Positions 10,927 through 46,080 are shown, counted from the stretch's first letter. The stretch is 54,742 nucleotides of DNA from an uncultured Candidatus Micrarchaeota archaeon (GCA_903835325.1 CAILMU010000061.1:1-54742); one strand, 5' to 3'. Numbers and translations are program-made. Notes: generated from the letters alone by a model not told the origin.

Positions 10927-11340
10927 TCAAAGTTTCCTCGCGAGCATCTTGAAATGGTTCTTGGCAAGGTCAAGCGTCTCGATGCCTTTGCTTGTTATGG
11001 TGTAGTACTTGCGCCTCTCTTCCTGTTCCGCTAGGATGAGGCCTTCGTTCTCGAGCTTATAGAGCACGACGTATATCATTATCTTGTTCGGCTTGAAACT
11101 GAATTCCTTATAGATTCGTTCATCGAGCGCATACGCGTGGATGCGCTTGTCCATCCTGATGAGCGAGAGGATGTAGAGCCAGAGGTTCTCGTTGGTGAGG
11201 AGGTGGCGCAGGCGCTTGATAGGGGCGGTCGGGTTGATATTATTTGATGGGGAGACGGATTCGCCGGATGGGCCTGCGCCGGCCCTTGCGCCCTTGGAAG
11301 CGGCATCACGAGGATCAGTCTTCATCTTGGTCATCCTCAA
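10927..11340 (-). CDS. PadR-family transcriptional regulator
   Basis: The segment LWLYILSLIRMDKRIHAYALDERIYKEFSFKPNKIMIYVVLYKLENEGLI...RKYYTITSKG is a typical PadR winged helix. The track start is TTG at 11340, and an ATG at 11334 is also possible. It abuts or overlaps the stop of the 1256-aa gene. Confidence 0.8.
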   Translation of the reverse strand: MRMTKMKTDPRDAASKGARAGAGPSGESVSPSNNINPTAPIKRLRHLLTNENLWLYILSLIRMDKRIHAYALDERIYKEFSFKPNKIMIYVVLYKLENEGLILAEQEERRKYYTITSKGIETLDLAKNHFKMLARKL

Positions 11341-14300
11341 TCTTTATCTGAGGGTTCCTTTCTCTTTTTTGGCGGGGTGTAACCGATATTTCTCTTCATT
11401 TCATCGAGTTCGGCGTCATCCCGTTCAGCCTGCGTCTGCTGGGGCGATTTCTTTGTGAAAAGGGAAGGCTGCTCCTCGTATCCTTCAGGAGCCCGCTCCA
11501 TCGTCCTATCCAGGCGCGCCAAGCTCTTGAGGTGATCCTCCACATCCCTTGTCGTGGTCGTGTCGGCCTGGTTTGCCGCTGAATTTGCAATGCTCTCGAC
11601 ATCCTTGTTCGACTTGATATCGGCTGAATTGACCATGTTGACCGCGAAATTCTCGGCTGCTCGGCGGTGGTCCTCCAGAGACCGGTCGAGGTCTGCCTGG
11701 CTTGAAGCCTTCAATGCGTCGTTGGCGAATTTCAGCTCGCCGTACGCGCATTGGGCAAGCACATCAGCGTTCGGCAGTTTGGTGTTCGATCCCAATGCGA
11801 CAAGGTCGCCCATGGTGCCATTCACCAGCCTGCTGACATCAAGTTCCGGAGGCGCGTTATGGGTCGTTGGGTCGAGAAGGCTAAGCGCCGCGACCGTATC
11901 GCGCTGCTGGATGTTGAAATATAGGGCCCCGGCTTCGTCTGCAACGCCATAACCCACTCCGACATATCCCCCGTCAGTCGTGCTTGGGAGGAGCAACGCG
12001 CGCATCACGCCTGCCTTCTCCTCGGCATCAGCCGCGAATTGGTGGGCGTTTTTTGTATCGATATTCTCGGGGTAGAGCACATTCGTCATGGCAGAATTGA
12101 AAAGATTTGCCGCTATCAGCTCCTTGTCTTTCGCCCCGGCCTCAGAAGCAGCCTGCTGGACCATCGCTTTCTCCTGTTCTTCGTTGAGCTTGCCTTCGTT
12201 GAACTGCTTGGCGATATCGGAAAGCTTGTCCTGGAATTTTTCAAGTTCAGGGTGCGCCTCCACATATTTATCTGGGAAATGCGCGCCGAAATTATCGTAA
12301 TACTCCTTTGCCGCATGAGCTGCCTCTAATCTCGATTCGGCAAGCTCGTTGCGCACATTGTTGACCTGTTCGATGAACTTGGTCATGCCAGGCTGACCGG
12401 GCATGGAATCCGGGGGCAGGCTCTGCTGGGCCAGGGCAGAAATTTTATTTGCGGTTTCCCCCAGTATTTCCTGACCTGTCCGAGCATCTCTGACGATCAT
12501 GCCCCCAGTTCCGCTCTGTTCCAGAATCACCTTGTCAGTGCCGAAATTCTTGATCATGTCCGGATCATGGAAATTCAGCGTGGTTCCGGTCGAAGCCTGC
12601 TGGGGGTTGGATTGGTAGAACGCTGCCCTTTCCGTTTCGCCAAGTTCCACTCCCTGGCCCCATTTGAGAACAATGGCTGCTTCCTGCGGGCTGAGCGTCC
12701 CCCCTGTCGAAGTGTTTGTCACGGTTTTGCCGTCTGGACCGATACGGAACGTGTTTCCGCTCTCTATCGGAGTTATCGTGATAGTGCCGTCGGGATTGCG
12801 GCGCTTTTCAGCTTCTTCCGGTGGCATCCCTAATTTTGCCAGGGCCGCAGAATCATGGACGATAATCAAATCAGTAGATATTGAACCGTCGGGGTTCACT
12901 TTGAGAGTAACTTTATTCTGGTGCAGTTCCGGAATCACAGCCTGCACCAGGTCCGGATCCGTAACGACGATCTTATCTGACTTTTTTCCTCCTTCGCCGA
13001 CCAGGGCGGTGCCCATTGTGACATCGATCCTCTGGGCATCCAGGCTGTCAGTGTGTATCTGCATCGCACCCCCCGGAAGCAGGATTATATTTGCCCCACC
13101 GGCATTGAACGAGTCGCGGTTGGCTGAATCCATGCGGGTTTTGAAATCCGCTGTGAAGTTTGCGAGTGTCAGTTCCTGCCCCTTAGGCATCTCCAGACCG
13201 AAGGCCTTGGATAATGACACAGGAGCAGAATCCTTGGGCACTTCCACATATTTCCCGTTCTTTTCATAGGCGACGATATTGCCATCGACCACCCTGGCCC
13301 CGTTCCCTGACGGATCGAAAATCAGGCCGGACAATCTTCCGGTCTTGGCATCTATTGACGCGCTCGACTCCACATAAAAGGTATTCGCCCCGACAGACAT
13401 CTGGTTGTAGGTGACAGGATTGCTGTTGGCATCGACCAATACTTTGCCCCCGTCAACCCTCATGACCTGGCCATTGACATAGATGAAACCGGTCTTTTCC
13501 TTCTCATCCCCGCCTTGCAGGAAAAGCCCGTTGGCTTTGTTGCCGCCGACATCGACCTGCATCTGCTTTGCATATCCCAAGTTTGTCTCGAGCTTTGTCG
13601 TATGTGCATTGTATTTCGCCGCATCCTCTGCCGCCCAAGCCTGCTTTATATCAGCCTCCTTTTTCATAGCGCTCTGGTTGGACGCGGTCATGAATTTGAA
13701 GAGGAGGCCGATTACGGGGATCTTGCCCAGGGTTTTGAAAAAGGAGGTCAGCGCATCGCCGTCGCCTCCACCCGTGTATACGACCTTGCCTCCCGCCCCA
13801 GGCGTTGCTGTCGTCTCTGACTTCCCGCCATAGACCGGCATGAGGACCGCGTTCACGTATATCGCCAGGTTCGATGCCATGACCGTCTGGACTACAAGGC
13901 TGCCGAGAAGCTTGCCCCATTGGACAGGCGCCTCGCCTGATGAACCTCTACCCGCGTGCGCAAAGCCTTCCTTGATTTCCTTTTTGAGGCTCTTCTGGCC
14001 TGCCGGTTCGGTCCCCATGGCCTTGCCGACACCTAGTCCAAGGCCCCGGTCCAGGGACTTGCCTATCATATTCATCGAATTGGCGAAAGGAACGAAACCG
14101 ATCGCCACATGTGATACGGCTTTGATGATAGATTTCGGAGTGAACTTGCCTTTTTCAGTCGGATTGAATTGCGAATATGCTCCTCCGCCGCCTCCTTTAT
14201 CATCTCCGCCTTCCTGCGTCGCTGAATAGATTTCTCCGGCTGTCGATGCCATGGACATGGCGAATGCGCCCCAGTTCAGGGCCTTGCCCCTCATCCTCGG

Positions 14301-15107
14301 CTCGTATCGCGGCTTGTAAGATATGCGGGGAGAAGAGAAATCAAAACCTGCAAACGGGTTCTTGCCGGACAGCTGCATCGCCCCGATGAGGAGCCCGAGC
14401 ACGAGGAGGAATGGAAGGCATATATCGCCCGGGATCTTTGAAGCCTCGGGCGGGGGCATCGGGCAGTACGGCACGGCGCTCATAGCCGGGAGGATTGAAT
14501 AGGTCTCAGGAAGAAGGATGGGCGAAGGCACGAAGCTTATACCCGGGGCGCCAGGTACGCCCAGAAGGCCGTTAGAGGGGTATGTGTTGATGGTGTCCCT
14601 GGTTATGCCTGTCATGTTGAAGCACTGCTCCAATCCGCACCCGTTCGAGAACGGGCAGTAGATGAAGACGAAGCTCTGGCATCCTATGGCAGGTTTCATT
14701 TTGTCATAGTAGGAGAGGTTCATGGTGGCTTGTCCGGTCTCGTCGGTGTAAAGGACCCAAAGGTCTTTCTGGCCCGGGACGAACGCGATGATGGTCGTGT
14801 TCTTGACAGGCTGGTCGGATGGGGAGGCGCTCGTGTTCTTGAAAGTGAGGTATAGCTGGATTTCATGGTAAACCGGATCCACGATGGCGATCATGCGCGG
14901 GTTGGTGTAATCCCCTATCCCGATGCAGCTCGGGCACTCCCCGTTATCACCTGAGTATAAACCAAACTGGGCGGCGAACGGGTTTGAGGAATCGAATGCA
15001 TAGGAATATGGAGAGGCGCCTTGCGTGAGCGGGAAAGAGAGATTTGCCAGGATGAGCAATATTACCGCAAGAACTGGAAAGCGCAACCGCTTCATGACCT
15101 TAAACAT
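11337..15107 (-). CDS. module gene 0, copy A: giant membrane-anchored protein (1256 aa)
   Basis: Signal peptide, then an ectodomain of about 200 aa with Cys and sequons (GECPSC, CPFSNGCGLEQC). TM helix is ICLPFLLVLGLLIGAMQL, followed by a basic stretch (PRISYKPRYEPRMRGK). A long, nearly Cys-free hydrophilic region follows. Paralogue of 28231-32568. Confidence 0.9.
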   Translation of the reverse strand: MFKVMKRLRFPVLAVILLILANLSFPLTQGASPYSYAFDSSNPFAAQFGLYSGDNGECPSCIGIGDYTNPRMIAIVDPVYHEIQLYLTFKNTSASPSDQPVKNTTIIAFVPGQKDLWVLYTDETGQATMNLSYYDKMKPAIGCQSFVFIYCPFSNGCGLEQCFNMTGITRDTINTYPSNGLLGVPGAPGISFVPSPILLPETYSILPAMSAVPYCPMPPPEASKIPGDICLPFLLVLGLLIGAMQLSGKNPFAGFDFSSPRISYKPRYEPRMRGKALNWGAFAMSMASTAGEIYSATQEGGDDKGGGGGAYSQFNPTEKGKFTPKSIIKAVSHVAIGFVPFANSMNMIGKSLDRGLGLGVGKAMGTEPAGQKSLKKEIKEGFAHAGRGSSGEAPVQWGKLLGSLVVQTVMASNLAIYVNAVLMPVYGGKSETTATPGAGGKVVYTGGGDGDALTSFFKTLGKIPVIGLLFKFMTASNQSAMKKEADIKQAWAAEDAAKYNAHTTKLETNLGYAKQMQVDVGGNKANGLFLQGGDEKEKTGFIYVNGQVMRVDGGKVLVDANSNPVTYNQMSVGANTFYVESSASIDAKTGRLSGLIFDPSGNGARVVDGNIVAYEKNGKYVEVPKDSAPVSLSKAFGLEMPKGQELTLANFTADFKTRMDSANRDSFNAGGANIILLPGGAMQIHTDSLDAQRIDVTMGTALVGEGGKKSDKIVVTDPDLVQAVIPELHQNKVTLKVNPDGSISTDLIIVHDSAALAKLGMPPEEAEKRRNPDGTITITPIESGNTFRIGPDGKTVTNTSTGGTLSPQEAAIVLKWGQGVELGETERAAFYQSNPQQASTGTTLNFHDPDMIKNFGTDKVILEQSGTGGMIVRDARTGQEILGETANKISALAQQSLPPDSMPGQPGMTKFIEQVNNVRNELAESRLEAAHAAKEYYDNFGAHFPDKYVEAHPELEKFQDKLSDIAKQFNEGKLNEEQEKAMVQQAASEAGAKDKELIAANLFNSAMTNVLYPENIDTKNAHQFAADAEEKAGVMRALLLPSTTDGGYVGVGYGVADEAGALYFNIQQRDTVAALSLLDPTTHNAPPELDVSRLVNGTMGDLVALGSNTKLPNADVLAQCAYGELKFANDALKASSQADLDRSLEDHRRAAENFAVNMVNSADIKSNKDVESIANSAANQADTTTTRDVEDHLKSLARLDRTMERAPEGYEEQPSLFTKKSPQQTQAERDDAELDEMKRNIGYTPPKKRKEPSDKD

Positions 15108-15145
15108 CAGATAAGCCTTAATAACTATTAGGGTTAATTGATTTC
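15108..15145. promoter_or_regulatory. 38-bp divergent control spacer, copy A
   Basis: Sequence CAGATAAGCCTTAATAACTATTAGGGTTAATTGATTTC has two AT-rich boxes, each about 22-30 nt from one of the two ATGs. The 5' part is conserved with copy B. Confidence 0.45.
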
Positions 15146-16432
15146 ATGCGTTGGCAGATGCTGATATTGATCCTTTTTTCACTGTTCGGCCTGTCATTTG
15201 CCGATGGCACAGATGTGTACCTGGCCATCTTCCCGGTTTGCGTCGTCATTGTCGCGATTATCCTAGGGATACTCAACATGGCGGCCGAGACATTCTCGCT
15301 CCCGGGCTTATCCGCGTATGTGAAAACCGAGCTGGGCGAGCTCGTGAGCGGGGTCGTCCTCGCCCTCATCGTCTATGCTTTCGTGCTCGGCACGAGCCAG
15401 GTCCTTCCAACACTTCTGGTCGGACAGAGCGCAACCAACGCCGCCCTTGATTACATCCACAAAGAGGTCTCCCTCTTCCAGACGACATACTGGGGAATCA
15501 TCAGGATAGGGACGCAGCTGAAGGCGATGGTCTCCTTCAGCACGCAGCAGGTCCTTCCTGCAGGGTGGGTAAGCTGGGCGCACAGCATCTCGCCTTACCC
15601 AGGCCTGGCCCCGCTGCTCTCGATACTTTCAATGGCGGTCCAGGGAGTCAGCAATAATATCCTGCTTTATCAGACGCTTTACCTGCTGCTCCAATTCTGC
15701 TCGGCGATAATCCCGACGATAATACTTCCTGTCGCCCTGTCGATGAGGCTGCTCCCCATCACAAGGCAGGCGGGGACGGCCGTCGTTGCGATATGCATTT
15801 CGCTTATCGTGATATTCCCGTGGTCGGTGGTCTTTGTCCAGCAGATACACAGCGTGCTCCCATACCAGGATCCTACCATTGACGCGAACGGGGGGGACGT
15901 GGTGGGAAGGATAATCAACACGCTGGGCGTGCACTTCCCGCTCACATCGTTCCTGAACGAGCTTTGCCAGAACAATGCTATCCGGCTTCTCCTGAGTTTG
16001 AACGAGCAGGGGACGTGGCTGCTATTCTGCACGCCGATATGCGCTATCGTCGCAGCGGTCCAGGCAGCCGCTTGCCTGACAGGATACGCGGGGTGCTTCC
16101 TGAATTTTTTCATGTTCTGCTGGTCTCCGATAGAATATATGGGCACGAAGGGGTATTGCTACAACATCGTAACCGCCATCGCATACCCTATCATGGTGGG
16201 AGTCTCGCAGATCGTTTACAATATCGGCGCCGCGTTCATGAACGTCCCAAGCGAGAAGGCAGGGGAGATATATGATGTCATGTACCCGTTCATGCGGGAC
16301 ATAAACAACATGGTGATGATGGGTTACGTGGATGCGATGATAATCGGGATATTCACGATCGTGGGCTCCAGGTCCATCTCAGCCGCCCTTGGCGGAGAGT
16401 GGTACATGATAAAGTTCCAGAGGCTGGTCTGA
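15146..16432 (+). CDS. module gene 1, copy A: polytopic membrane protein (428 aa), paralogue-family member
   Basis: Signal peptide and multiple TM helices. Family motifs present: FSLPGLSAYVKTELGEL, ILPVALSMRLLPITRQAG and C-terminal ALGGEWYMIKFQRLV. Confidence 0.9.
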   Translation: MRWQMLILILFSLFGLSFADGTDVYLAIFPVCVVIVAIILGILNMAAETFSLPGLSAYVKTELGELVSGVVLALIVYAFVLGTSQVLPTLLVGQSATNAALDYIHKEVSLFQTTYWGIIRIGTQLKAMVSFSTQQVLPAGWVSWAHSISPYPGLAPLLSILSMAVQGVSNNILLYQTLYLLLQFCSAIIPTIILPVALSMRLLPITRQAGTAVVAICISLIVIFPWSVVFVQQIHSVLPYQDPTIDANGGDVVGRIINTLGVHFPLTSFLNELCQNNAIRLLLSLNEQGTWLLFCTPICAIVAAVQAAACLTGYAGCFLNFFMFCWSPIEYMGTKGYCYNIVTAIAYPIMVGVSQIVYNIGAAFMNVPSEKAGEIYDVMYPFMRDINNMVMMGYVDAMIIGIFTIVGSRSISAALGGEWYMIKFQRLV

Positions 16433-17445
16433 TGGATGGAATCAAGAGATGCCAGCCCGGTTTTGGAGCGGATATTCCGGGGTTGATTCTAAGGTCCGCG
16501 TTTTTCTTCCTGCTGATCGCTTACATATCGCACCCAGGGGATTTTGCGTGCGTGCAGAATGCGGGCGATACTGTTATTTCCGGGGCAGGAGCGTATATCG
16601 GCATCGCAACCATGCTGATGGTGCTTGTCATCGCAGCAGCCTACATGCTCGGCATGACGACGAGCAACGCCAATGCCATCGTGTTCGCCAAGGACGAGCT
16701 TTTCCACCTCGGGTTTTCCATCGTGCTGCTCCTTGGGATCGGCGGGATAATGGCATCCGGCTGCCTGATCACGAATTCGATGTTCTCGCTCACGTTCAAG
16801 CAATCATCGGACATCTACCATTATTATTCAGATTGCGGCGGCGAGACAGCGGATCCGACCAACCTCACCGTGTGCGCGATATCCATGCCCCTGAAGGCAT
16901 CCAACAGCCTTATCGGCACCTACACGCAATACAGCATCAATAACATGATGCAATCGAACTGGTTCTACACATATGCGCTCCCGTTCACAGACATCGTGAC
17001 CACAAACGCCGCGGCATACAGGCGCACATGGTCCACCGAGAACGACATGGTCCTCAATACGTTCATCGTGCCTTCGTATGTCAGCCTCAAGATGCAGCAG
17101 ATACTCCTGGGGCTTTTCAGCCAGTACTCCGTGGAGCTGCTCCTTCCTGTCGGGTTCATATTCAGGTTCATCCCGGTTTTCAGGAAATTCGGCAACTTCC
17201 TTCTTGCGATGGCTTTCGGTTTCTATATAGTATTGCCTTTCTTCGCAACATTCAATTTCTTCGTATACGACCATTTCGCAAACTCCCCGATCCCCATCAA
17301 TGGCTTCAAATTCGCAGACAACTCGAATGGATTCTATACCATCTCGCTGCTGGTATCTCAGGCGTTCTTCCTGCCCAACCTGACGATAGTCCTTTTCATC
17401 ACATTCCTTTCAGGGATCAACAAGGCGCTCGGGGCGATCGGATGA
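16432..17445 (+). CDS. module gene 2, copy A: polytopic membrane protein (337 aa), family member lacking the C-terminal tail
   Basis: TGATG overlap with gene 1, the same as in copy B. Motifs YMLGMTTSNANAIVFAKDELFHL and LLPVGFIFRFIPVFRKFG. The protein ends ...INKALGAIG. Confidence 0.85.
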   Translation: MDGIKRCQPGFGADIPGLILRSAFFFLLIAYISHPGDFACVQNAGDTVISGAGAYIGIATMLMVLVIAAAYMLGMTTSNANAIVFAKDELFHLGFSIVLLLGIGGIMASGCLITNSMFSLTFKQSSDIYHYYSDCGGETADPTNLTVCAISMPLKASNSLIGTYTQYSINNMMQSNWFYTYALPFTDIVTTNAAAYRRTWSTENDMVLNTFIVPSYVSLKMQQILLGLFSQYSVELLLPVGFIFRFIPVFRKFGNFLLAMAFGFYIVLPFFATFNFFVYDHFANSPIPINGFKFADNSNGFYTISLLVSQAFFLPNLTIVLFITFLSGINKALGAIG

Positions 17446-19787
17446 GAAAACTTGCGATTTTCCTGGTGCTGGCGTTGCTGATCGGCCAGGTATCGGCGGA
17501 TGAGAGCGGCCCGACATCCACGGCGCTTTCCGCGGTCGGGACAAACCCGGACCTTGTCCACGAGCTTTTCTCGGACTGGCAGGCGATAACGCTCATCGCG
17601 ATAATGCTCTCGGCCATGCTCGTCTCCTTGGCTTACATGCTCGGGATTGGTTTTGAGATCCCCTCCTTGAAAGCATGGGCCGGCACCGAGCTTGGCCAGG
17701 TGATAGCGAGCGCCATCATCGTGCTGACATTATGGGTCCTCATGGGGATAATCGATTTCAATGTCGCGCTTGTGGTCAACAGCTCCGTGGCGAGTGTTTC
17801 CCAAGGGATGCCCTCTTGCATGGCCGTCGGAGAGCCGTGCCTGAAGGATGCGGCGGTGTTCTACCTTGATGGCTACATCGCGTCGGCAAAGAGCGCTGCC
17901 CGCGCCATTTTGGTCAACAATATGGACGCGGCGAACAAGGCGAACAAGAGGGATTTCTTCAGCTGCTCGCTCGCTATCTACCCCCTCCCATGCATGCAGT
18001 ATTCAAGCCAGTCATCAAATGATGCGTACCTTGTCCTGGATGTCGACAAGAACACGCTGTTATTCGAGAATTACGCATCGCTCCTCTCATCGATGGAGGC
18101 GCAGGAATTCTTCGTCAAGAACATCTGCTTCCTGGTCGGGCCGTATATCCTCGCCCTCGGGATCCTGGCAAGGACATTCTTCATGACCAGGAAGCTCGGC
18201 GGGCTTCTTATCGCTGCCGCTGCGGCGCTTCTCTTCGTGCTTCCCCTGATGTATATGTTCAACTGGATGACGCTCAACCTGGACTTCAGCGGCGATAAGG
18301 AATTCGGCAGCCAGGCCAGCATGTGCCCGGAGGAGTGCTCTGCCATGCCGCCATTGGTCTATGATGCCAATGTAGTCGGCGGGAAGAACTTCATTTACAG
18401 CAGCCAAGACTTATATGGCATGTTCTACGATGCGAAGAAAGACCCGCTGATCACAAAGAACCTGACCAACGGGATCATAGGAACGTATGACTGGAAGACC
18501 GAGTTGCCGGGAGTGACACCTAGCAAGGGGCCGCCAGACCCTATGCTCACATCATGCCAATCCCAGGCCACAGTGAAGATATCCGACCTGCCGGCTGATT
18601 CCGCATTCGATTATTCCACGCTCTGCGCGAAATACGTTGACAACAGCCTGATAGTGCAGACATGCGGTTCGCAATACCAGACCCAGGATGCCAGCGGGAA
18701 CACCGTGATGCTAACCATAGACAACGCTTCGATAGAATGCCCGTATTTCTGCAGGGAGCTCCCATACCCTTATGTGAATTCCTTGTGCGCCCCGCCCATC
18801 ATCCAGAAGGCTTGCGCCAAGCTTCCGGAGATCTGCAAGGTGAGCCGGAAGGCCACCCTCAACACATTGAGCAATCATGCCGACGATGATTTGAGCTGCG
18901 TCCAGGAATGCAGGGTCGTGCCTCCCTTGAACAACAGCTGCGATGTCGGCAACTGCCTTGAGTCGAGGGCCGACTGCAGGGTCTCCATGCGAAACGATAC
19001 GAACTATCGGATCACACTGATCGGACAAAATACAGGTTCCAGCGATTCGAACATGGCCAATGAATCGCTGAAGTGCTCATGGGCATCCGAATGCCCGGCG
19101 AGCCTGGTGGCAAACGAGTCATGCACCTGGGTATTGCCCCGCACCCCGCAGGACTGCAAGGAGATATGCCCTTCATGCCCGAGCGAATGCAGGGTGACCG
19201 GCATGGATGGCTCGGAGCAGGAGATGCTGCCTGATAGCTGCTACAGCGATTCGTCGAAAACAACGCTCATCGACTCGTGCAGCAGCGCGAACTGCCCGGA
19301 CTCGTGCAAGATACCTATCCAGAGGATAAAGATGCTGGACCCGACAAACATCGCATGCAAGACAAGCGACGGTTCGAGCCAGTGCAGGTGGGGATGCAGG
19401 GTCGCAGGGACGAGTTCGGTTCCGACCGGATGCGATCAGACCGCTTGCAGCCTCAACGTCTGCGGCGGATCATTCAGGGAGACCGTGCCATCCAGCTCCT
19501 GCCAGAAATGCCTGGATGTGGAGGCTAATTTCCATTATGACCCGGCGGTCCTGCGCAACTGCGCCGATTATTGCGCACCGCAGAAGAACCCGACCGAGAA
19601 CCCGGTCAAACCGCTCACCATGAACGGGTTCGTGGGGGGCGGGGATTACCAGAACATCGCGCAGCTCATGATCCAGGCATACCTGCTTCCGCTGTTCGAT
19701 TTCGCTGTCACGCTCATGTTCGTCCGTTCGTTCTCGGGGATGCTTGGTGGCGACATAGAATTGCCAGGGGTTTCCAAGGTGATATGA
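17442..19787 (+). CDS. module gene 3, copy A: membrane protein (781 aa) with a large Cys-rich ectodomain insertion
   Basis: ATGA overlap with gene 2. Signal peptide is MRKLAIFLVLALLIGQVSA. Motifs YMLGIGFEIPSLKAWAGTELGQ, ILARTFFMTRKLGG and C-terminal MLGGDIELPGVSKVI. The Cys-dense region spans about aa 280-735. Confidence 0.9.
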   Translation: MRKLAIFLVLALLIGQVSADESGPTSTALSAVGTNPDLVHELFSDWQAITLIAIMLSAMLVSLAYMLGIGFEIPSLKAWAGTELGQVIASAIIVLTLWVLMGIIDFNVALVVNSSVASVSQGMPSCMAVGEPCLKDAAVFYLDGYIASAKSAARAILVNNMDAANKANKRDFFSCSLAIYPLPCMQYSSQSSNDAYLVLDVDKNTLLFENYASLLSSMEAQEFFVKNICFLVGPYILALGILARTFFMTRKLGGLLIAAAAALLFVLPLMYMFNWMTLNLDFSGDKEFGSQASMCPEECSAMPPLVYDANVVGGKNFIYSSQDLYGMFYDAKKDPLITKNLTNGIIGTYDWKTELPGVTPSKGPPDPMLTSCQSQATVKISDLPADSAFDYSTLCAKYVDNSLIVQTCGSQYQTQDASGNTVMLTIDNASIECPYFCRELPYPYVNSLCAPPIIQKACAKLPEICKVSRKATLNTLSNHADDDLSCVQECRVVPPLNNSCDVGNCLESRADCRVSMRNDTNYRITLIGQNTGSSDSNMANESLKCSWASECPASLVANESCTWVLPRTPQDCKEICPSCPSECRVTGMDGSEQEMLPDSCYSDSSKTTLIDSCSSANCPDSCKIPIQRIKMLDPTNIACKTSDGSSQCRWGCRVAGTSSVPTGCDQTACSLNVCGGSFRETVPSSSCQKCLDVEANFHYDPAVLRNCADYCAPQKNPTENPVKPLTMNGFVGGGDYQNIAQLMIQAYLLPLFDFAVTLMFVRSFSGMLGGDIELPGVSKVI

Positions 19788-28150: not shown

Positions 28151-28230
28151 GGATTGTTGGATTGCTTTGTCGGATAGGATTGCCGAACAGGTAGACCGGC
28201 CTGAAAAGTATTTCGGGAACGCACCTGCCA

Positions 28231-38338: not shown

Positions 38339-39367
38339 GTGCTGCCAATCGCCGGAATATCGGCGGTTGCGACAGGTGCGATAATCGCCGCAGTGTACAT
38401 GTACGGCCATGCCACCAGCAACCCGAAGCTCAATGAATGGTCCAAGACAGAAGCCGTCCAGCTCCCGGTCTCGATGGCGTCGGTGTTCCTGATAATACTG
38501 GTGATGAATTCGTTCTGCGCTATCGACATCAACAGCGTGAGGGGCATTTTCGGCAAGCCCCCCATCGTCCTCGCCACGCCCGGGGCGACGACGAATATCT
38601 ATTATGCGGCCGAGAGCTACCTTGTCCAGAGCGCGTCTTTTTCCAGGGACGCCATGATAATCGCGAGGTATCACCATTCGGTCTACAATATCCTCCTGAT
38701 GCGGAGCACCTACAGGTGCGACGCATGGTGCTGGTTCGGTAACTCAGGCACGACGTTCCAGGGGTTTGCCGGATATTCAGGCAGGCTCAACCTGATGGGC
38801 CTGCTCTTCAACACCGCGCTGACATCGTATCTGTCCGCGCTCAACAGCCTCCTCATCTTCCTGTTCGTGAAAAGGGGGTTCATCCTTCTCCTGCTTCCCA
38901 TGGGCGTCTTCCTGCGCTCGATGCCTTTCCTCCGGACTTTCGGCTCGGTCCTGATAGCCTTATCAATGTCCTTCTTCCTCATATATCCGGCGACGCTCGC
39001 AGTATTCTCGATGATGGATGGTGTCTTCGACGACCCGTTCCCGAAGGATGTGCAGTCGCCTTTGCCCGGGTCCCCCAGCTACAACGTGAAGGATTATTTC
39101 CTCAACGAAGCGAACATCTATGGCAGGGACAGCGAGACGCCCGACCTGTCTTCGGACGCCGAGCTGGATGACAGCGCCCTGATGGGCACATATTTCCCGT
39201 TGAGCGGGGAGTACCTGTTCGAGACCGTTGAGTTCGTGGCATACGCATTCATCGCCGCGGTGTTCCTGCCCACCGTCGCGCTGCTCGCCACCGTGGCGAG
39301 CGTGAGGTACCTGGCGAGGATGTACGGGGAGGAGATAGACCTCAGCAGGATAGTCCAGATGGTGTAG
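38339..39367 (+). CDS. module gene 5, copy B (342 aa from GTG; the N-terminus may extend upstream)
   Basis: Motif YMYGHATSNPKLNEWSKTEAVQL. C-terminal tail is MYGEEIDLSRIVQMV. The 17 codons between the gene-4 TGA and this GTG are open and align without gaps to the copy-A N-terminus. Confidence 0.8.
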   Translation: MLPIAGISAVATGAIIAAVYMYGHATSNPKLNEWSKTEAVQLPVSMASVFLIILVMNSFCAIDINSVRGIFGKPPIVLATPGATTNIYYAAESYLVQSASFSRDAMIIARYHHSVYNILLMRSTYRCDAWCWFGNSGTTFQGFAGYSGRLNLMGLLFNTALTSYLSALNSLLIFLFVKRGFILLLLPMGVFLRSMPFLRTFGSVLIALSMSFFLIYPATLAVFSMMDGVFDDPFPKDVQSPLPGSPSYNVKDYFLNEANIYGRDSETPDLSSDAELDDSALMGTYFPLSGEYLFETVEFVAYAFIAAVFLPTVALLATVASVRYLARMYGEEIDLSRIVQMV

Positions 39368-39380: not shown

Positions 39381-40424
39381 ATGATAGGCAACTTCGCGAA
39401 TTTGATCCTTGACGAACTGACGCCCGGCTCAGACATCCTGAACGTGCCTGCCTGGATAGCCCTCGTGTTCGCGGCCACCATGGCCGTCTTCCTCATCCAC
39501 CTGATAATATACATGCTGGCCAAAGCGTTCGACATCGCGGACCTGAAAGCCTATTCAGAATCAGAGATGATGCAGGCCCTTGCCACGTTCCTGATGGCCG
39601 GGTTCATCGTGGTCATGCTCTCGAGCGCGGCGGATTTCGCGTACAAGGAATTCCTCAGCGGGGGCCAGATTCCCTGCGGCGATAATATGCTCTACATCAC
39701 AGGCCCCACCAGCTTCGGCGCCGACGGGCTCGATGTCATCCAATGCAGGCTCCTGGAGAAAGCGACCGCGATGAGCGAGCTCAAGACCCAGATATTAAAC
39801 TCTGCCGCGGGCTCGGGGATATTCGACCAGCTCAACGACCGGGTCAGCCTGATGGGCGCATCCGTATCCCAGGGCGACTGGGACTCCAAGACGTATTCGA
39901 CAGCCGAAGGGTACAGGTACGCGAACATCTTCGCGACCACGCTCCTTGCTTCGCTGAATGCCCAGGCGTTCTTCGTCATGTATATCAAGAAGAACATGAT
40001 ATCCTTCTTCCTGCCGATGGGCATCATACTGCGCGGGTTCAATTTCACAAGAGCGATAGGCGCGTTCTTCATAGCCCTCGCCATCGGGCTGTATTTCATC
40101 CTGCCCATCCTCTACCTGATCACGGACCCTGGATTCGTGAGGGTGCCGCCGACCGCATCGGCGATCACGACAGCTACATACTGCTACCAGACATTCAGCG
40201 GCGCCATCAACCTGGTGGGCCTGCCCAAGGTCCAGGCTATCGGCGAGGAGCAGACTGCGATGGATATGACCAGCATCAGCTCCGAGCTGAGCAGCACATA
40301 TATGAGCCTGCTCACCCATGCCTTCGTCGTGCTTTCGATCACGCTTGTGCTCGTCCGATACGGCATGACGCTGCTGGGAGGGGAGACGATGGAGCTCATG
40401 AGACTGGTCGGGAGGGTGGTCTGA
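39381..40424 (+). CDS. module gene 6, copy B (347 aa)
   Basis: Motifs YMLAKAFDIADLKAYSESEMMQ and FLPMGIILRGFNFTRAIGA. C-terminal tail is LLGGETMELMRLVGRVV. Confidence 0.9.
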   Translation: MIGNFANLILDELTPGSDILNVPAWIALVFAATMAVFLIHLIIYMLAKAFDIADLKAYSESEMMQALATFLMAGFIVVMLSSAADFAYKEFLSGGQIPCGDNMLYITGPTSFGADGLDVIQCRLLEKATAMSELKTQILNSAAGSGIFDQLNDRVSLMGASVSQGDWDSKTYSTAEGYRYANIFATTLLASLNAQAFFVMYIKKNMISFFLPMGIILRGFNFTRAIGAFFIALAIGLYFILPILYLITDPGFVRVPPTASAITTATYCYQTFSGAINLVGLPKVQAIGEEQTAMDMTSISSELSSTYMSLLTHAFVVLSITLVLVRYGMTLLGGETMELMRLVGRVV

Positions 40425-43400
40425 TGAGGAGCGCCTATCTGCTTATCGCGGCCGTGCTGGCTCTTTCATCACTCTACGGGTGCCTCGAGACGAACAAGGA
40501 TTTCACGTGCTGCCTGCGCCACTATGCGAACGACACCGGCAAATGCAAGATGTACAATTCGACCGACCCGAACAACCCCCTGGATCTTTCCGCTAAGACC
40601 AATTGGTGCAACATGACAGCGAATGTCTGCAATGTTACTACGAAGGACCAGAAGGTGACGGGCTTCTGGCCGAACATCGTCTTGAGCCCGGCCGAGCATT
40701 CCCTCATACCGATATGCACCGAGCTGGGCCCGCAGCAATGCATCGACCCGAAATGCCGGGTGATGGTATGCGGGGATTTCGAATTCCGCCCAAAGGTGCC
40801 GCCGACCGTGGAGGATTCGCAGAAGGCCGCTTCCAAGCAGTCGGGGAGCTCGGCCATCAACCTCTACCACGGCCAGTGCCAGTTCCTGCCGATGGATTAC
40901 AAGCTCGCGGGCATAATGAAGAACTCCCAGGGCTATCTGAGCAGGTTCAGGATAGGGCTCGGCACCACGTTCGATGAATATGCAAAGTACAGCGCGTTCT
41001 TCCCGATATCCGACAAATTCTGCAACATCAACACGCTCGGCACCATAGACCGCTTCCAGAATTATCTTGTCCCGGCGCAGATGAAGTTCGATCCCCTCAC
41101 AGGCATCAATGACAGCTGCGTCTCGGACCAGGACCCGGCGCAGGCCCCGCCGCCGCTGAAACTGGGGAACCTCAATCTCGGCCCGACCAACCAGCCGGTG
41201 ACAGGATACAAGATGGCCGGCTTCATCAGGGAGGTCTCGTTCCCCGTTTCGGACATCAATACGAATTATTTCATGACACCGTATTCCCGGCCCGACCCGA
41301 AATTCTACGCAACCGAGCTCCAGAAAAGGTATCTGGACGATGCATACAACTACACCATGTGGGTCATCCATGTGAACGACAAGTTGAAGGACGCGAAGAT
41401 CCCGAAAGCCTCGCTAAGCACTGACTGCTCGAAGTGCGCGGGCCTGTGCGACCAGGTCCCGGCATGCATGGACGCGACGATATACGGCGAGCGGTGCAAG
41501 ACGGACTGGGCCAATTATGACAAGTATCTGGAGGAGAAGGCCGCAGCCGAGGCTGAAGTGACCAAGGCGTTGGGCGAGAGGCCGAAGGCGGCCCCGAAGG
41601 CGCTGTATGAATGCGACCCGAACCGGCCCTCCGAATGCCTGTCATCCAGATGCAGCACCGACGATTACAACCGGGTGAACCTGTTCGTGAGCGGGCAGGA
41701 GGTGGCGCTACCTTGCACGCTTTCCACGGTCCAGGCGCCGAATTACGATAAGATGTTCGAACCGAACCTATCGGCCGTGCTACCGCAGGACGGGAAGACG
41801 GTATACGATTCCGATCTCGGGTCTTTGATGGCGCCTTATGACACCTATGATGTCCTGCGGTGCGAACCCACGACAGACATCACATTCGACACCCCCGGGA
41901 GCAGCGTCGCGACGCACCACCTGGCCCAAGCCTCGTACAAGGCGGCCGGGAGCGACCAGTACACGGAGGGGACGGCGGGCGATATCGTATTGTTCAGCTA
42001 TGACAAGGCGAGATATCCGGCGGACCACATCTACCTGAAATACAAAACCGATATCACCAATACACCGCAAGACACGATATGCTCGAGCGGCGAGAGTTGC
42101 GCCGGGAAGTATGAGGCCGATTACTCTAATACAGGCAAGCCGGTGATCGGGTACACTGTCATGAACGGGCAGGACTTCCCCAACACGCTTTTCGCCAGGC
42201 TCTGCCAGCTCAATTCATCAACCGATTATGAGGTCGTGAAGATCAATAACGACACCGTATGCGGCGAGGATACGCATGCCCCGTTGGGCTCCTGCATGGT
42301 GGCCTGGGAGACTCCAGGCGGTTCGGTAGGGAATTCGCAGAAGAATTGCTATCATACGATGGGATGCGTGGCCCAGGGAGGAGGAAGCGACGCAGTCGCA
42401 TTCTTCTTCGCGACCGGATGCGCGATCCAAGGCCAGGGTTCGTGCAACAACCCCGAGATATCCCCTAACCTGGCGGACAGCTATTACGGGCTTTCGCGCA
42501 CATTCGGCAGCGGCGCTCTCTATAACGGCATTTCCACGTCATGGCAGGATTTCCCGGCGGAGATAAGACCGCAATTCCTCAATGACCTGCAGGCCATGCA
42601 TGCGAGGCCGGACGACAAAAATGATTTCCAGTCCAACAGGTACATGTGCCTCTCGCCGGAGTATCCTGGTCAGCAGACGCAGGCAGACTCCTCGCCCGAT
42701 TGCGTCGCTGATATCCCGAACGCCCCCAAGGAGATCGTCCTCATCCACAGCCTCGGCGCATGCGACTATGACCTGAAGCCCGGGACATTCCCGAAACTCA
42801 AGGAATACGGATGGTGCGACAGCTGCACGCTTGCGAGCATGGCCTACCAGAAGGTGGACCGGCTCGATATCCCGTATATCCCCCTGAACGAGGTGGGGTA
42901 TTCCTCGACAACTGGAAATCCCAAGAACTACACCTACCAGTTTCAGAAAGGGCCGGCTGTATTCGACGCATCGCAGCTGGCAGACAGCTTCAATTCCTCG
43001 CCCATCTGCACCTGGCAGCCGGTAGATGACAACAACAAATTAGCGTTCATGAGGTGCAACACCAGCACGGACTTCAAGCCTTACCACAAGCAGGATCCGG
43101 GCAACATACATGCCCCGCAGGAGGAGCCCGAAGCGACATACCTGAAGATGCAGATGGCCAGGTTCCAGCAGTCCGGCGCGATACCCATATTGGATTTGTC
43201 CGACGATGCGGACTGGGCGCCGATAGACGCAACGATATACGTCGATGAATCAGGCTTCTATGATAAATGCAAGAGCGACAATCAAGAGAGCGCCTCATCG
43301 TTCTGCAGTCTTGGTGCGTTGCAGTTGCAATACAAGCCCGCTTGTGAGAATGACTATCCGGGTGATATGGCGAAGGTATTGCAGTGCATGAATGACCGGT

Positions 43401-45526
43401 GCATCGAGGACCAGCTGAAAAACGCCTGCGCCTCTGTCCCGGACACGCAGACAGTGGCGAAACAGGTCCAGGAGTACATGTCCACCCGCCTGATATACAA
43501 CCAGGGCGCGACGATAGTCGTGGTGGAGGGCACCAATGCCAGCGAAGACGCTGCCGTGATGCAGGAAAACATCAAGACCAGGAACCAGATAATCAAGAAG
43601 GACTGCCCCAGATGCCTTACTGCCGTGCGCGTGATGGGCTATGACAATGCGACATTCGCAGCCTCGCTGAGTAGGGTGTTCAACGGCACCAATTGCTTCG
43701 GCATCATCGGGGGTATCGGGGCAGGCACCTGCAATATGCTGCTTGCCGACGACCCGCTCTTCGGAGTGGATGTGGTGATCTTCGACTATGGCGTACAGGA
43801 GAACAAGGAGGCCTATAAGAGTTCAAAGACCCCGGACGAGAAGGCGACTGCCGTCATAGGCGACCTGCAGGACCGCGGGTTCTACATATTGAAGAATTAC
43901 AACAAGCCCTCCATAGTTTTCGATTTCTATGTCTCCCAGCAGGACCTGGCCGGCTCGACATCCAATCCGGATGGCTGGAGCAAGGATGAGGTGGACGCGC
44001 TCTTCAAGAAGATGATAGAGCGGGAGGACGACCTGGTGAAGGCAGGGGTCACCGGATTGTTCTACGCGAGGGTGAAAAGCGTACCGTATCCTGAAGCCGG
44101 CAAAAGCACCGACACGGATTGGACGAAGCTCATCACACCTTCCGATGACTCGGTCCACCGCTCGATGTGCTCGCTGAGCCAGGCGATGCTCCGCATGGTG
44201 GCTGAGAAGCCCCTGACGCTGATAGAACGCAAGAGCGCGACGCCGGTCGTCTATTGCACGGACTGTTCCTATTCGGACCTCTATTCAGGGACATGCTCGA
44301 TGACATGCGGAAACGGCATCAACTGCACAGCCGGACCGGATGCCACAGCCCTGAGCGACCTGAAATGCCCTGATGGCGGGATCCCCGACCCGTGCAGGGA
44401 ATGCAACACGACGGGCAAGACCTTCACCTGCACGATTGAATACGAGAACGGCAGCATCGTGAAGCATGATGTCGACTCGAAGGACATCTCAAACGATGCG
44501 TACGCGGACGTGATATCCGGGATCGCCGCTCCGGACAAGTGCTGCCTCTCGAATGAAGGGGCCAACTATAGTTTCACCCAGAGCTCTGTCACGATCGGCG
44601 TGAATTCTCCCGTGGTCTTCTCGAAAAGCGGGGATACGAACGTGGACTGCGCCTTCCCATCAGCCTCATCATTGCAGAACGCCGGGCAGGGGCAGTTCTG
44701 CAACGTCAAGACGAACACGATGAATTACCGCGTCTCCTGCATTGAGAAGAACGCATATGACAAGCTCTCGGCAATAGGAGCATTCAAAGGAGGCTTCGAT
44801 TTCAGCAAGAACTACCAGGCGATAAACACCGCCCAGGTTCCCGGCACCGGCGGGGCGTTGAAAGCATCTCCCGGGGGCCTGGTGAACGGGGGCAATGCCG
44901 TGATATCTTCCTCGGGGGCAGTGCAGGGCGTAAATGACCCATGCCTCAATGAAAACCCATCCGGGACAGGAGGGGGCCTGGTCCAGGCCCAACCAGGGGT
45001 CATCACCGGCACCGGAGGAGCGGCCCAGACCTGCGAAGGGCCCGCGTACATATGCTCGGAGTTCGCCAAGCAATGGGAGAAGGCGAAGGAGAAGCAATGC
45101 ACTGACTACATCGCGCAATGCAGAGCAGAGCCCTGGACATACAGCAGCTATCCAGACTACGAGTTCTGCCCGGGTCAGGATGATTGCAAGAATAATTTCA
45201 ATACGTACTGCGCCAAGGTCATCCAGAAATACGGGAATGGGCAGCTCGCGTGCGAAGACGCATGCTGCGAGAACATGTGCCAGATAACCATCTGCCCGCC
45301 GGACCCCAACAATCCCAAGCAGAGCGCGCCAGGGTGCACGGAGGTCACCTGCCCGCCAGACCCCTGCCTGCAAAGGAATGACTCCTGCGAGCTGACCTGC
45401 AATAAGGCCGGAGGAGGGTCGGCTATAGTCGATCCGCCATATCCGTGGGCGCCAGGAGGCTCTCTAGCCGGCAAGGGCAACGACCCCTGCAAAGCCTTCC
45501 AGCAGACCGGTCCGACGGTGAAATGA
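40424..45526 (+). CDS. module gene 7, copy B: giant Cys-rich secreted or lipoprotein-like protein (1700 aa)
   Basis: TGATG overlap with gene 6. MRSAYLLIAAVLALSSLYGCLETNKDFTCC parallels the copy-A N-terminus. Both copies share the C-terminal motif PPYPWAPGG(A/S)LAGK.NDPC. The track ORF from 39743 is an artefactual upstream extension. Confidence 0.9.
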   Translation: MRSAYLLIAAVLALSSLYGCLETNKDFTCCLRHYANDTGKCKMYNSTDPNNPLDLSAKTNWCNMTANVCNVTTKDQKVTGFWPNIVLSPAEHSLIPICTELGPQQCIDPKCRVMVCGDFEFRPKVPPTVEDSQKAASKQSGSSAINLYHGQCQFLPMDYKLAGIMKNSQGYLSRFRIGLGTTFDEYAKYSAFFPISDKFCNINTLGTIDRFQNYLVPAQMKFDPLTGINDSCVSDQDPAQAPPPLKLGNLNLGPTNQPVTGYKMAGFIREVSFPVSDINTNYFMTPYSRPDPKFYATELQKRYLDDAYNYTMWVIHVNDKLKDAKIPKASLSTDCSKCAGLCDQVPACMDATIYGERCKTDWANYDKYLEEKAAAEAEVTKALGERPKAAPKALYECDPNRPSECLSSRCSTDDYNRVNLFVSGQEVALPCTLSTVQAPNYDKMFEPNLSAVLPQDGKTVYDSDLGSLMAPYDTYDVLRCEPTTDITFDTPGSSVATHHLAQASYKAAGSDQYTEGTAGDIVLFSYDKARYPADHIYLKYKTDITNTPQDTICSSGESCAGKYEADYSNTGKPVIGYTVMNGQDFPNTLFARLCQLNSSTDYEVVKINNDTVCGEDTHAPLGSCMVAWETPGGSVGNSQKNCYHTMGCVAQGGGSDAVAFFFATGCAIQGQGSCNNPEISPNLADSYYGLSRTFGSGALYNGISTSWQDFPAEIRPQFLNDLQAMHARPDDKNDFQSNRYMCLSPEYPGQQTQADSSPDCVADIPNAPKEIVLIHSLGACDYDLKPGTFPKLKEYGWCDSCTLASMAYQKVDRLDIPYIPLNEVGYSSTTGNPKNYTYQFQKGPAVFDASQLADSFNSSPICTWQPVDDNNKLAFMRCNTSTDFKPYHKQDPGNIHAPQEEPEATYLKMQMARFQQSGAIPILDLSDDADWAPIDATIYVDESGFYDKCKSDNQESASSFCSLGALQLQYKPACENDYPGDMAKVLQCMNDRCIEDQLKNACASVPDTQTVAKQVQEYMSTRLIYNQGATIVVVEGTNASEDAAVMQENIKTRNQIIKKDCPRCLTAVRVMGYDNATFAASLSRVFNGTNCFGIIGGIGAGTCNMLLADDPLFGVDVVIFDYGVQENKEAYKSSKTPDEKATAVIGDLQDRGFYILKNYNKPSIVFDFYVSQQDLAGSTSNPDGWSKDEVDALFKKMIEREDDLVKAGVTGLFYARVKSVPYPEAGKSTDTDWTKLITPSDDSVHRSMCSLSQAMLRMVAEKPLTLIERKSATPVVYCTDCSYSDLYSGTCSMTCGNGINCTAGPDATALSDLKCPDGGIPDPCRECNTTGKTFTCTIEYENGSIVKHDVDSKDISNDAYADVISGIAAPDKCCLSNEGANYSFTQSSVTIGVNSPVVFSKSGDTNVDCAFPSASSLQNAGQGQFCNVKTNTMNYRVSCIEKNAYDKLSAIGAFKGGFDFSKNYQAINTAQVPGTGGALKASPGGLVNGGNAVISSSGAVQGVNDPCLNENPSGTGGGLVQAQPGVITGTGGAAQTCEGPAYICSEFAKQWEKAKEKQCTDYIAQCRAEPWTYSSYPDYEFCPGQDDCKNNFNTYCAKVIQKYGNGQLACEDACCENMCQITICPPDPNNPKQSAPGCTEVTCPPDPCLQRNDSCELTCNKAGGGSAIVDPPYPWAPGGSLAGKGNDPCKAFQQTGPTVK

Positions 45527-46080
45527 GGATGGCCGAGTTTATCGAAGTCCTCCGCCTTTCGCACCGCCTTCCGCGCGATGAACGCATCTCCACCCATGTG
45601 GCGCTCGTCGCCCGCGCGTTCGGAGCTTCTTCTATTATATATAGCGGACAGCATGATGCAGGTCTCGAATTGAGCGTTTCGCGCATCGCAGAAAGATGGG
45701 GCGGAAGACTTGGAGGCGGGGAGTTCGCGATTTCGTACGAGCGCAACCACACCCAATTCATAAAAAAGCGCAAGCGCGAAGGGTTCGTTATCGTCCATCT
45801 GACGATGTACGGGATAAAAATAGGAAAAATGCTCGGCGAGCTCGATAAAATTAAAAATAAAAAAATCCTCATCGTAGTGGGTTCCGAAGCGGTCCCTCCC
45901 GAAGTGTACCAGCTCGCTGATTTCAATGTCTCGGTGACAAGCCAGCCCCACAGCGAAGTCGCGGCCCTCGCGATAACCCTTGACCGGCTGAGGGAAGGAG
46001 CCGAGCTCGAGCGCGATGATTTTTTTGGGGAAATCCATATCGAGCCGAGCGAACGCGGGAAGAGAGTGGTGAAAAGATGA
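45523..46080 (+). CDS. trm56: tRNA (cytidine56-2'-O)-methyltransferase, archaeal SPOUT-class aTrm56
   Basis: Segments LRLSHRLPRDERISTHVALVARAFGA, RWGG, VHLTMYG, IVVGSEAVPPEVYQLADFNVSVTSQPHSEVAALAITLDRL match the aTrm56 pattern as I recall it. ATGA overlap with gene 7. Size is about 185 aa. Confidence 0.85.
   Translation: MRMAEFIEVLRLSHRLPRDERISTHVALVARAFGASSIIYSGQHDAGLELSVSRIAERWGGRLGGGEFAISYERNHTQFIKKRKREGFVIVHLTMYGIKIGKMLGELDKIKNKKILIVVGSEAVPPEVYQLADFNVSVTSQPHSEVAALAITLDRLREGAELERDDFFGEIHIEPSERGKRVVKR

Follow-up and report, generated by a model that had tools for sequence, protein, structure and literature searches.

A 54.7-kb stretch of DNA from an uncultured Candidatus Micrarchaeota archaeon (GCA_903835325.1 CAILMU010000061.1:1-54742), called here the window and taken at its full length of 54,742 nt (GC content about 55%), holds two collinear units of eight genes each. 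Unit A occupies 11337-27961 and unit B occupies 28231-45526, and all 16 open reading frames (ORFs) of the two units are intact. Six of the eight genes in each unit, numbered 2 through 7, are paralogs of one another, and the module they form recurs across Micrarchaeota. The best overall reading, which we hold tentatively and with a little less than even confidence, is that the module encodes a hetero-oligomeric, surface-exposed envelope apparatus of Micrarchaeota, and that this genome carries two non-sister, exchanged cassettes of it. An earlier note on this DNA had described the eight-gene module in its two diverged copies, and ORF calling reproduced the sizes, strands, and order given there.

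The mutual paralogy of genes 2-7 had been overlooked in that description, and the architecture proposed here hinges on it. The relation was recognized from cross-matches between the paralogs in blastp searches, with expectation values (E) of 1e-5 to 1e-15. Residues E59, P189, R195, R201, G204, and P219 are invariant and common to the paralogs. Each of the proteins has a signal peptide and five transmembrane (TM) segments arranged on a shared plan. The N-terminal half comprises the signal peptide, TM1, a short K-x-E-x-x-Q turn, TM2, and a loop of ~90 amino acids (aa), and the C-terminal half comprises TM3, an LPxGIxLRxFxxTRGxG loop, TM4, a variable loop, TM5, and a GxExD tail. In gene 4, the second outside loop is enlarged to ~460 aa and carries 36 cysteine (Cys) residues.

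Three features predict that both large loops lie outside the cell: the distribution of positive charges, a conserved pair of Cys residues in loop 1, and the Cys-rich enlargement of loop 2 in gene 4. The motifs with the highest conservation would then reside on the cytoplasmic face. The predicted outside parts of the module proteins are enriched in Cys and carry N-x-S/T sequons at 1.2-2.2 per 100 aa, whereas the tail of gene 1 has only 0.08-0.4 sequons per 100 aa and a single Cys. This enrichment outside, together with near-absence in the gene 1 tail, supports the predicted topology. Given these TM segments and the Cys-rich and sequon-rich ectodomains, the earlier proposal that the module is embedded in the envelope holds up well. 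An AlphaFold2 model of A5, built from an alignment with 32 orthologs, reached a mean predicted local distance difference test score (pLDDT) of 84 and a predicted template modeling score of 0.76. It consists of helices of 35-49 residues and one beta hairpin that bears the conserved Cys pair. When this model was compared by Foldseek with the PDB and BFVD, no match was returned at E<0.1.

The module is phylum-wide, usually present in single copy, and not private to this genome. A HMMER scan with the paralog profile retrieved 2843 representative proteins at E<=1e-3. Every named homolog, as well as all 79 loci from species-representative genomes, belongs to Micrarchaeota, and thus the earlier guess of a DPANN-like archaeon was well placed. 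Exactly six tandem paralogs are present in every complete locus among the 85 that were fetched, where two apparent cases of seven proved to be split ORFs. A comparison of six loci revealed one-to-one orthologs for each gene with the order preserved. Gene 8 is placed after the six paralogs, and gene 1 is located either divergently upstream, as in the window, or after gene 8, as in deeper lineages. A gene for a PadR-family regulator abuts the module in 30 of the 85 loci, positioned after gene 1 or divergently from gene 2, and its usual context is ScpB-AAA_18-PadR. It is this recurrence of exactly six ordered paralogs along with genes 8 and 1 and PadR that marks the module as a property of the phylum. 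The housekeeping gene trm56, which follows B8 in the window, also follows gene 8 in loci L088, L079, and L084. In the deeper-branching loci L001 (11075-11689) and L004 (11053-12189), an extra small gene (204 and 378 aa, respectively) sits between genes 7 and 8, and this gene is absent from the modules of the window.

Searches for known families returned uniformly blank results. None of the 16 module proteins had a significant match in Pfam, nor did any of 109 diverse paralog-family members or 25 gene 8 orthologs when scanned singly. The proteins of unit A gave nothing significant against NCBIfam, PHROGs, or PADLOC, and family profiles built for genes 5, 1, and 8 had no significant match among PDB sequences. 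The claim that the module lacks a recognizable family therefore survived comparison with all five resources. An identity as S-layer protein was considered and set aside: there was no NCBIfam or Pfam match to S-layer families (of the SLP_Mh or TIGR01564 type), and the proteins do not have the low Cys content used as a criterion for this assignment. Full-text searching of the literature turned up no description of the cluster. In its families, its fold, and its architecture, the module is thus highly novel.

The two giant proteins that accompany the six paralogs are of very different design. Gene 1 encodes a signal peptide, a Cys-bearing ectodomain of ~200 aa, a proline run, a TM helix, and a conserved basic juxtamembrane motif (GKNPFAGF...R...YEPRMRGK). 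Conservation among 24 orthologs is confined to the N-terminal ~280 aa, and the variable, nearly Cys-free tail of ~1000 aa that follows is probably cytoplasmic. Gene 8 has a signal peptide and a lipobox (LIAGC in A8, LYGC in B8) whose G18-C19 pair is invariant in 25 orthologs. It thereby has the features expected of an archaeal lipoprotein, and lipidation is predicted. About 35 of its Cys residues are invariant, and the Cys content of genes 8 and 4 is 4.6-5.4%.

One region of gene 8 offered a possible clue to function. An alternating strand/helix (beta/alpha) pattern is present at aa ~900-1235, and Foldseek matches of a gene 8 model were to TIM barrels, led by members of glycoside hydrolase (GH) clan GH-A (GH53, GH5, and GH79) with E of 4e-6 to 1e-3. 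The model itself is of low confidence, having been built from five sequences, with pLDDT 47 overall and ~52-85 for individual ten-residue blocks across most of the barrel. The template modeling scores (TM-scores) of the matches are likewise low, at 0.15-0.28 when normalized to the query and 0.18-0.41 when normalized to the target. No GH family of Pfam was found among the 25 gene 8 orthologs, and an alignment of 45 sequences contains no invariant glutamate (Glu) in the barrel region and thus no candidate for the catalytic Glu pair. The domain at ~900-1235 may possibly be TIM-barrel-like and directed at carbohydrate, and we do not call it a hydrolase; hydrolase activity is doubtful because the invariant Glu pair is lacking. 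The earlier assertion that nothing in the module resembles a known family, glycosyltransferases included, accordingly calls for a caveat as to fold, where these weak similarities to clan GH-A hydrolases occur.

Comparison of the two units reveals both a clear kinship and a deep divergence. Paired proteins are 35-62% identical (37-62% in the blastp alignments, with E from 1e-105 to 0), and DNA repeats between A and B are collinear at a constant offset of 17.42-17.65 kb, with 70-79% identity in the best stretches. The resemblance is far above chance. Overall nucleotide identity is 49-67%, the longest tract shared by A and B is 62 nt at 90%, and there is no exact shared stretch longer than ~30 nt. 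DNA self-comparison revealed no long identical tracts of the kind that recent gene conversion between A and B would leave. Where residues are identical, 39-53% are encoded by different codons, which agrees with the earlier observation that identical peptides, such as TFSLPGLSAYVKTELGEL in both A2 and B2, are written with differing codons. The proportion of synonymous differences (pS) is 0.57-0.69, corresponding to a saturated synonymous divergence (dS) of 1.1-1.9, and the ratio of nonsynonymous to synonymous divergence (dN/dS) is 0.20-0.38. Because of these codon differences, saturated pS values, and dN/dS ratios, both copies are seen to be intact and constrained.

Divergence between the units is concentrated in the outside parts of the proteins, especially outside loop 2. 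Identity there is 20-38% in four of five pairs and 56% in gene 7, compared with 65-75% for TM3-TM4 and for TM5 through the tail, where the exception is TM3-TM4 of gene 3 at 51%. The GC content of third codon positions is higher in B than in A for all eight gene pairs (marginally so for gene 2), and both sets of values lie within or near the range of the flanks, a pattern that does not discriminate between modes of origin. Stop/start overlaps of the TGATG and ATGA types couple most of the module genes. The matching junction types reported earlier (TGATG, then ATGA, a gap of 1 nt, an in-frame gap that in A is 3 nt long, and again TGATG) are recovered when the list is counted from the 428-aa gene (gene 2) onward, with the exception of B5/B6, where the spacing is 51 nt. 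The module end had been placed at 45645, a position ~120 nt beyond the B8 stop and inside trm56.

How did one genome come to carry both units? The earlier note regarded them as an old duplication kept under purifying selection. The evidence for constraint upholds the second half of this statement, but A and B are not sisters. Trees of genes 5 and 7 place A outside a group made up of B, L005, L088, and the P0003 and P0015/P0018 contigs, and the gene tree topology is (A,(B,L005)). As expected of a tandem duplication, the units are collinear and meet at a unit-end junction; the further expectation, that the copies be closest relatives, is contradicted by these trees. The junction contains a ~190-nt relic of trm56 that is frameshifted by an 11-nt indel. 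Because an intact trm56 follows B8 and this 5' relic follows A8, the join between the units is the product of a genuine recombination event, with its right breakpoint within trm56. The relic is 77%, 83%, and 57% identical to intact trm56 at codon positions 1, 2, and 3, such that its third positions differ by 43%, compared with pS of 0.57-0.69 for the module. This codon-position analysis is suggestive, and with 65 codons it is too small to separate in situ duplication from acquisition. In addition, the relic is the outgroup to both trm56 orthologs, which is predicted under either scenario.

The most informative relative is L088, which includes genes 7 and 8 and trm56. It has a toxin-antitoxin pair unlike that of the window, followed by orthologs of the window ORFs at 47584-47985 and 48061-54741. 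Its right flank is 93% identical to that of the window in DNA, and the two flanking proteins are 98.5% and 95% identical (dS 0.11 and 0.29). For trm56 the identity drops to 83.5% (dS 0.71). It is lower still for the genes of the module, at 64-68% in DNA and 50-65% in protein (dS 1.0-2.4). A near-identical flank beside a diverged center, as expected of an exchanged island, is therefore present between the window and L088, on the right flank only. In four other pairs of related Micrarchaeota loci this contrast is absent, and conservation of the paralogs is similar to that of most genes in the flanks. Because module dS is about equal to flank dS in these four pairs, rapid evolution is not an intrinsic property of the module. 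A large share of the divergence between A and B probably dates from a time when the units were still in separate lineages, because A and B are not sisters, because L088 displays this contrast, and because the relic is less diverged than the synonymous sites of the module.

From these comparisons we favor a history in which related lineages exchanged or gained complete modules through recombination in the conserved flanks, over a simple duplication in place; an ancestral multicopy array with differential loss may be an alternative. The interval from PadR to trm56 would then act as a cassette slot in which whole modules are replaced or added by recombination. This genome has two variants that are not sisters, lying one after the other with a trm56 scar at the join. 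Six metagenome-assembled genomes (MAGs) have two module loci on separate contigs (L009/L029, L022/L037, L028/L048, L052/L065, L076/L079, and L067/L084). Where such pairs can be placed in trees their copies are non-sister, and they could be either real second copies or binning mixtures. Searches for independent contigs that cross the A8-B1 junction, or that place the left flank beside another module type, yielded nothing but short or truncated contigs, and a metagenome scan with the conserved flank pattern yielded only a second copy of L088. Contigs of other assemblies with identical flank genes or related modules (ENA contigs in ERZ1426813 and ERZ1426812, as well as L091 and L005) tend to end at or inside the module, one just before PadR/gene 1 and others within gene 1 or gene 8. 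These contig ends may reflect population heterogeneity at the locus.

A single ancient tandem duplication in situ, with both copies under purifying selection and all A-B divergence accumulated within one genome, has to be weighed against the exchange of cassettes, and we judge it rather unlikely. The collinear units, both intact and constrained, are what it predicts, and the junction, which joins the 5' part of trm56 to the 3' end of gene 1, resembles a classic tandem scar. Unit A could also be a fast-evolving copy that is an outgroup in appearance only. However, B is nearer to the modules of three or four other organisms than it is to A, and no A-like second copy was seen on the 36-kb L005 contig or among 5.8e9 proteins. 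The trm56 relic, although non-functional, retains 78% identity to trm56 in its first 105 nt, and the differences are mostly at third positions. Furthermore, the relative with a near-identical flank has a third and equally distant module type, and the module does not evolve unusually fast. Far less credible is that the second copy is an assembly artefact created by a chimeric join of two populations. In its favor, the contig is metagenomic and is the only long one across 27.9-28.3 kb, breaks at or inside the module occur in other assemblies, and some two-module MAGs could be binning mixtures. But with 49-67% DNA identity and no long exact stretch between the units there is nothing for assemblers to misjoin, and the junction is a frameshifted trm56 fragment instead of a repeat boundary. 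The two flanks occur once each, and they show synteny with opposite sides of the ancestral locus. Misassembly is thus unlikely given the low identity and the biologically sensible scar.

If the exchange of cassettes is set beside the protein features, a model for the apparatus can be sketched. The six paralogs would assemble 1:1:1:1:1:1 into a hetero-oligomeric and probably ring-like membrane core, a stoichiometry we infer because each is present in one copy, in fixed order, and with frequent translational coupling. The K-x-E-x-x-Q turn, the LPxGIxLRxFxxTRGxG loop, and the GxExD tail would form a conserved cytoplasmic face, and the long helices and variable loops would project outward. An outer structure could be supplied by the disulfide-rich loop of gene 4 and the gene 8 lipoprotein, which is probably glycosylated and has the possible TIM-barrel-like domain. 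Bitopic gene 1 would tie the core to its putatively cytoplasmic tail. Transcription of the operon and of gene 1 would begin at a 38-bp back-to-back leaderless promoter, with PadR as a likely regulator. Most speculatively, the assembly could be a structure for host attachment or exchange, or a target of viruses, and this would drive the exchange of cassettes. A role in surface contact or exchange, involving either host or virus, is what we infer from these features.

Several findings weigh against such an apparatus. Pfam scans of the window and of L001-L006 revealed neither an ATPase nor any other energy source within the module or beside it. The module is located among housekeeping genes and is vertically inherited in most lineages, which fits a structural role equally well. 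The gene 8 model is poor, and its barrel is without the Glu pair. In addition, the flank/module contrast comes from one relative, spans ~5 kb, and involves only the right flank. The main functional rival is accordingly a housekeeping one, in which the module is a structural envelope element. It could, for instance, hold the S-layer to the membrane as an anchor or stalk, or form a shell cross-linked by disulfides like the chlamydial outer membrane complex. This proposal is compatible with the phylum-wide, housekeeping-like synteny: the module is in every locus retrieved from the sampled Micrarchaeota, has descended mostly vertically, and occupies a syntenic chromosomal site among ScpB, the small AAA_18 kinase-like gene, PurA, and Trm56. 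The large number of invariant Cys residues would be in keeping with a rigid cross-linked structure. Moreover, a membrane anchor is not evident in the S-layer protein described from Ca. Micrarchaeum harzensis, and the authors of that study raised the possibility of a second, membrane-bound stalk protein. Swapping of modules and the co-occurrence of two divergent variants would be unusual for a pure scaffold, however, and divergence is concentrated in exposed loops. There is also no similarity to SlaB-type or other S-layer proteins, and we regard a purely structural role as unlikely.

A divergent type IV secretion system or Ced/Ted-like translocon, with the paralogs as stalk-base subunits of the VirB6/CedA kind, appears very improbable. 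The general resemblance is real, in that polytopic long-helix subunits are accompanied by a lipoprotein and a bitopic protein, and the VirB6 protein TrwI (7o3v_J) does occur in the Foldseek list of A5, but at rank 37 with E of 0.74 and a TM-score of 0.24. When the 109-sequence family profile was aligned by hhalign with R388 TrwI, the probability was 0.2%, and no TrbL/VirB6 Pfam match was found in the 109 members. Neither the window nor L001-L006 contains an ATPase of the VirB4, VirD4, or HerA type or a confident pilin, and the only ATPase-like gene in the window flanks is the small AAA_18 kinase-like gene. Membership in VirB6/TrbL (or a CedA-like group) was rejected on profile, on fold, and on the absence of a linked ATPase or pilin in these loci. 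The least probable of the alternatives, to which we assign almost no weight, is that the module is a mobile element, provirus, or defense island. Its cassette-like exchange and the toxin-antitoxin genes on both sides (HEPN/nucleotidyltransferase at 9883-10861 and AbiEii at 46123-46788) might bring such elements to mind. Yet no integrase, tRNA, or terminal repeats are present, PHROGs, PADLOC, and BFVD gave no match, and the module keeps a fixed chromosomal position with vertical descent across the phylum.

Similarities to known systems are best treated as analogies. VirB6/TrbL proteins such as TrwI, as well as CedA, are likewise polytopic, have helices that extend beyond the membrane, form the base of a stalk, and have lipoprotein or bitopic partners, and they offer a working analogy for a conduit made from six subunits of this kind. 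Unlike VirB6, which forms a homo-pentamer, the Micrarchaeota set consists of six distinct paralogs and has no linked ATPase, pilin, or coupling protein. O-antigen and capsule loci and the surface glycoprotein islands of Haloquadratum have conserved flanks and a diverged center that is exchanged through homologous recombination in those flanks, which is usually explained by selection that viruses or partners exert. The locus in the window shares with these hypervariable islands the conserved flank (seen in the one pair with L088), the deeply diverged and apparently exchanged center, and the predicted surface exposure of its products. What it encodes, however, is a protein machine of fixed architecture, and neither a set of glycosyltransferases nor a lone surface protein. 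The SPEARE proteins of Nanohaloarchaeum antarcticus, reportedly very large, DPANN-specific, predicted to be extracellular, and proposed to function in host interaction, are another instance of giant DPANN surface proteins. No domains shared with these were detected, and the Micrarchaeota giants differ in being Cys-rich and in their genetic linkage to a membrane core of six paralogs. The chlamydial outer membrane complex is an envelope layer of disulfide-cross-linked, Cys-rich proteins that include lipoproteins. It differs from the Micrarchaeota module in its unrelated sequences, its location in a bacterial outer membrane, and its lack of a polytopic paralog set.

The positions of the module genes and their immediate neighbors are collected in the table. 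Some of the assignments depend on the choice of start codon. The public gene call for A7 is 348 aa, which fits a start at the ATG at 21894, and the MRW start of B2 at 32607 agrees with those of A2 and L005. The longest ORF for PadR overlaps the A1 stop by 4 nt. A TATA-like box of the TTTAAAT type is present ~25-30 nt upstream of the gene 2 ATG in many loci, and the 38-bp gap with two AT-rich boxes suggests back-to-back leaderless promoters for genes 1 and 2. The adjacent PadR protein is likely the regulator of the module.

Table. Genes and other features of the two units and their borders, numbered from the first nucleotide of the window
Feature	Position	Strand	Description
PadR-family regulator	10927..11340	-	Pfam PadR 4.9e-9; directly downstream of A1, same strand
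A1	11337..15107	-	1256 aa; bitopic giant
A1-A2 divergent promoter region (putative)	15108..15145		38 bp, two AT-rich (TATA-like) boxes
A2	15146..16432	+	428 aa; paralog 1 of 6; extra hydrophobic segments in outside loop 2
A3	16432..17445	+	337 aa; paralog 2 of 6; start overlaps A2 stop (TGATG)
A4	17442..19787	+	781 aa; paralog 3 of 6; ATGA overlap with A3
A5	19789..20775	+	328 aa; paralog 4 of 6; nearest to family consensus; modeled
A6	20779..21834	+	351 aa; paralog 5 of 6
A7	21888..22940	+	350 aa; paralog 6 of 6
A8	22940..27961	+	1673 aa; giant predicted lipoprotein, 77 Cys, 24 N-glycosylation sequons
trm56 5' relic	27972..28165	+	between A8 and B1; aligned to trm56 at 45526 onward
B1	28231..32568	-	1445 aa; A1 counterpart
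B1-B2 divergent promoter region (putative)	32569..32606		38 bp; TTTAAAAA and TAAATA boxes
B2	32607..33854	+	415 aa; paralog 1
B3	33854..34951	+	365 aa; paralog 2
B4	34948..37272	+	774 aa; paralog 3; Cys-rich outside loop (36 Cys)
B5	37274..38287	+	337 aa; paralog 4
B6	38339..39367	+	342 aa; paralog 5
B7	39381..40424	+	347 aa; paralog 6
B8	40424..45526	+	1700 aa; giant Cys-rich predicted lipoprotein, 83 Cys
trm56 intact (aTrm56 tRNA 2'-O-methyltransferase)	45523..46080	+	Pfam PF01994 3e-41; ATGA start overlaps B8 stop

Beyond the module, the flanks encode adenylosuccinate synthetase, a HAD hydrolase, ScpB, the AAA_18 kinase-like protein, a HEPN/nucleotidyltransferase pair, PadR, aTrm56, and AbiEii. 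No tRNA, integrase, or phage, plasmid, or defense family was found in the window. The HEPN/nucleotidyltransferase (MNT-type) toxin-antitoxin pair is on the minus strand between AAA_18 and PadR and also occurs in L024; in most Micrarchaeota loci AAA_18 directly adjoins PadR. On the other side, between trm56 and a conserved 133-aa ORF, the interval 46123-47479 holds AbiEii and an ORF without assignment, and its GC content falls to 0.49. The same slot in L088 (6930-7424) is occupied by DUF7557/ParE, which makes this a small variable toxin-antitoxin slot beside the module. The 133-aa ORF itself (47584-47985, plus strand) is the best conserved of the genes compared with L088.

Two giant ORFs are also present in the window. 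One of more than 2226 aa (48061-54741, minus strand) runs off the end and has no Pfam or PDB match, and a recurring motif of ~35 aa (...YG.EF...V...) is visible by eye. Its 95% identity to the L088 ortholog extends over 1067 aa, and so it has been conserved while the neighboring module diverged. The other (1577-6928, plus strand) encodes 1783 aa of no recognizable family with a central hydrophobic stretch, and it is not beside the module in other loci.

Cryo-electron tomography of Microcaldus variisymbioticus ARM-1 has revealed a barrel-shaped complex under the S-layer that receives host nanotubes and whose molecular identity is not assigned (PMC11329633). Like the proposed apparatus it is a large envelope complex; it lies at the host contact site of an archaeon related to Micrarchaeota, and the match is purely a candidate one. 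In the boldest version of our model, which we consider improbable though worth stating, the module encodes a hetero-hexameric envelope port that docks onto hosts and draws material from them, its exposed parts set partner specificity or virus susceptibility, and it could be the ARM-1 barrel complex. If true, this would explain both the swapping of whole modules between close relatives and the two variants kept here.

The cluster is a concrete, phylum-wide candidate for the means by which DPANN archaea attach to hosts and obtain their lipids, nucleotides, and amino acids, at a time when tomography has shown envelope complexes without assigned genes. Exchange of cassettes at a fixed slot would also be unusual in that a protein machine, and not a glycan locus, serves as the swappable surface determinant of an archaeon. 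Even if the role of the module is structural, the paralog family, with its 2843 representative proteins at E<=1e-3, is a large unannotated part of Micrarchaeota genomes that deserves to be defined as a family.

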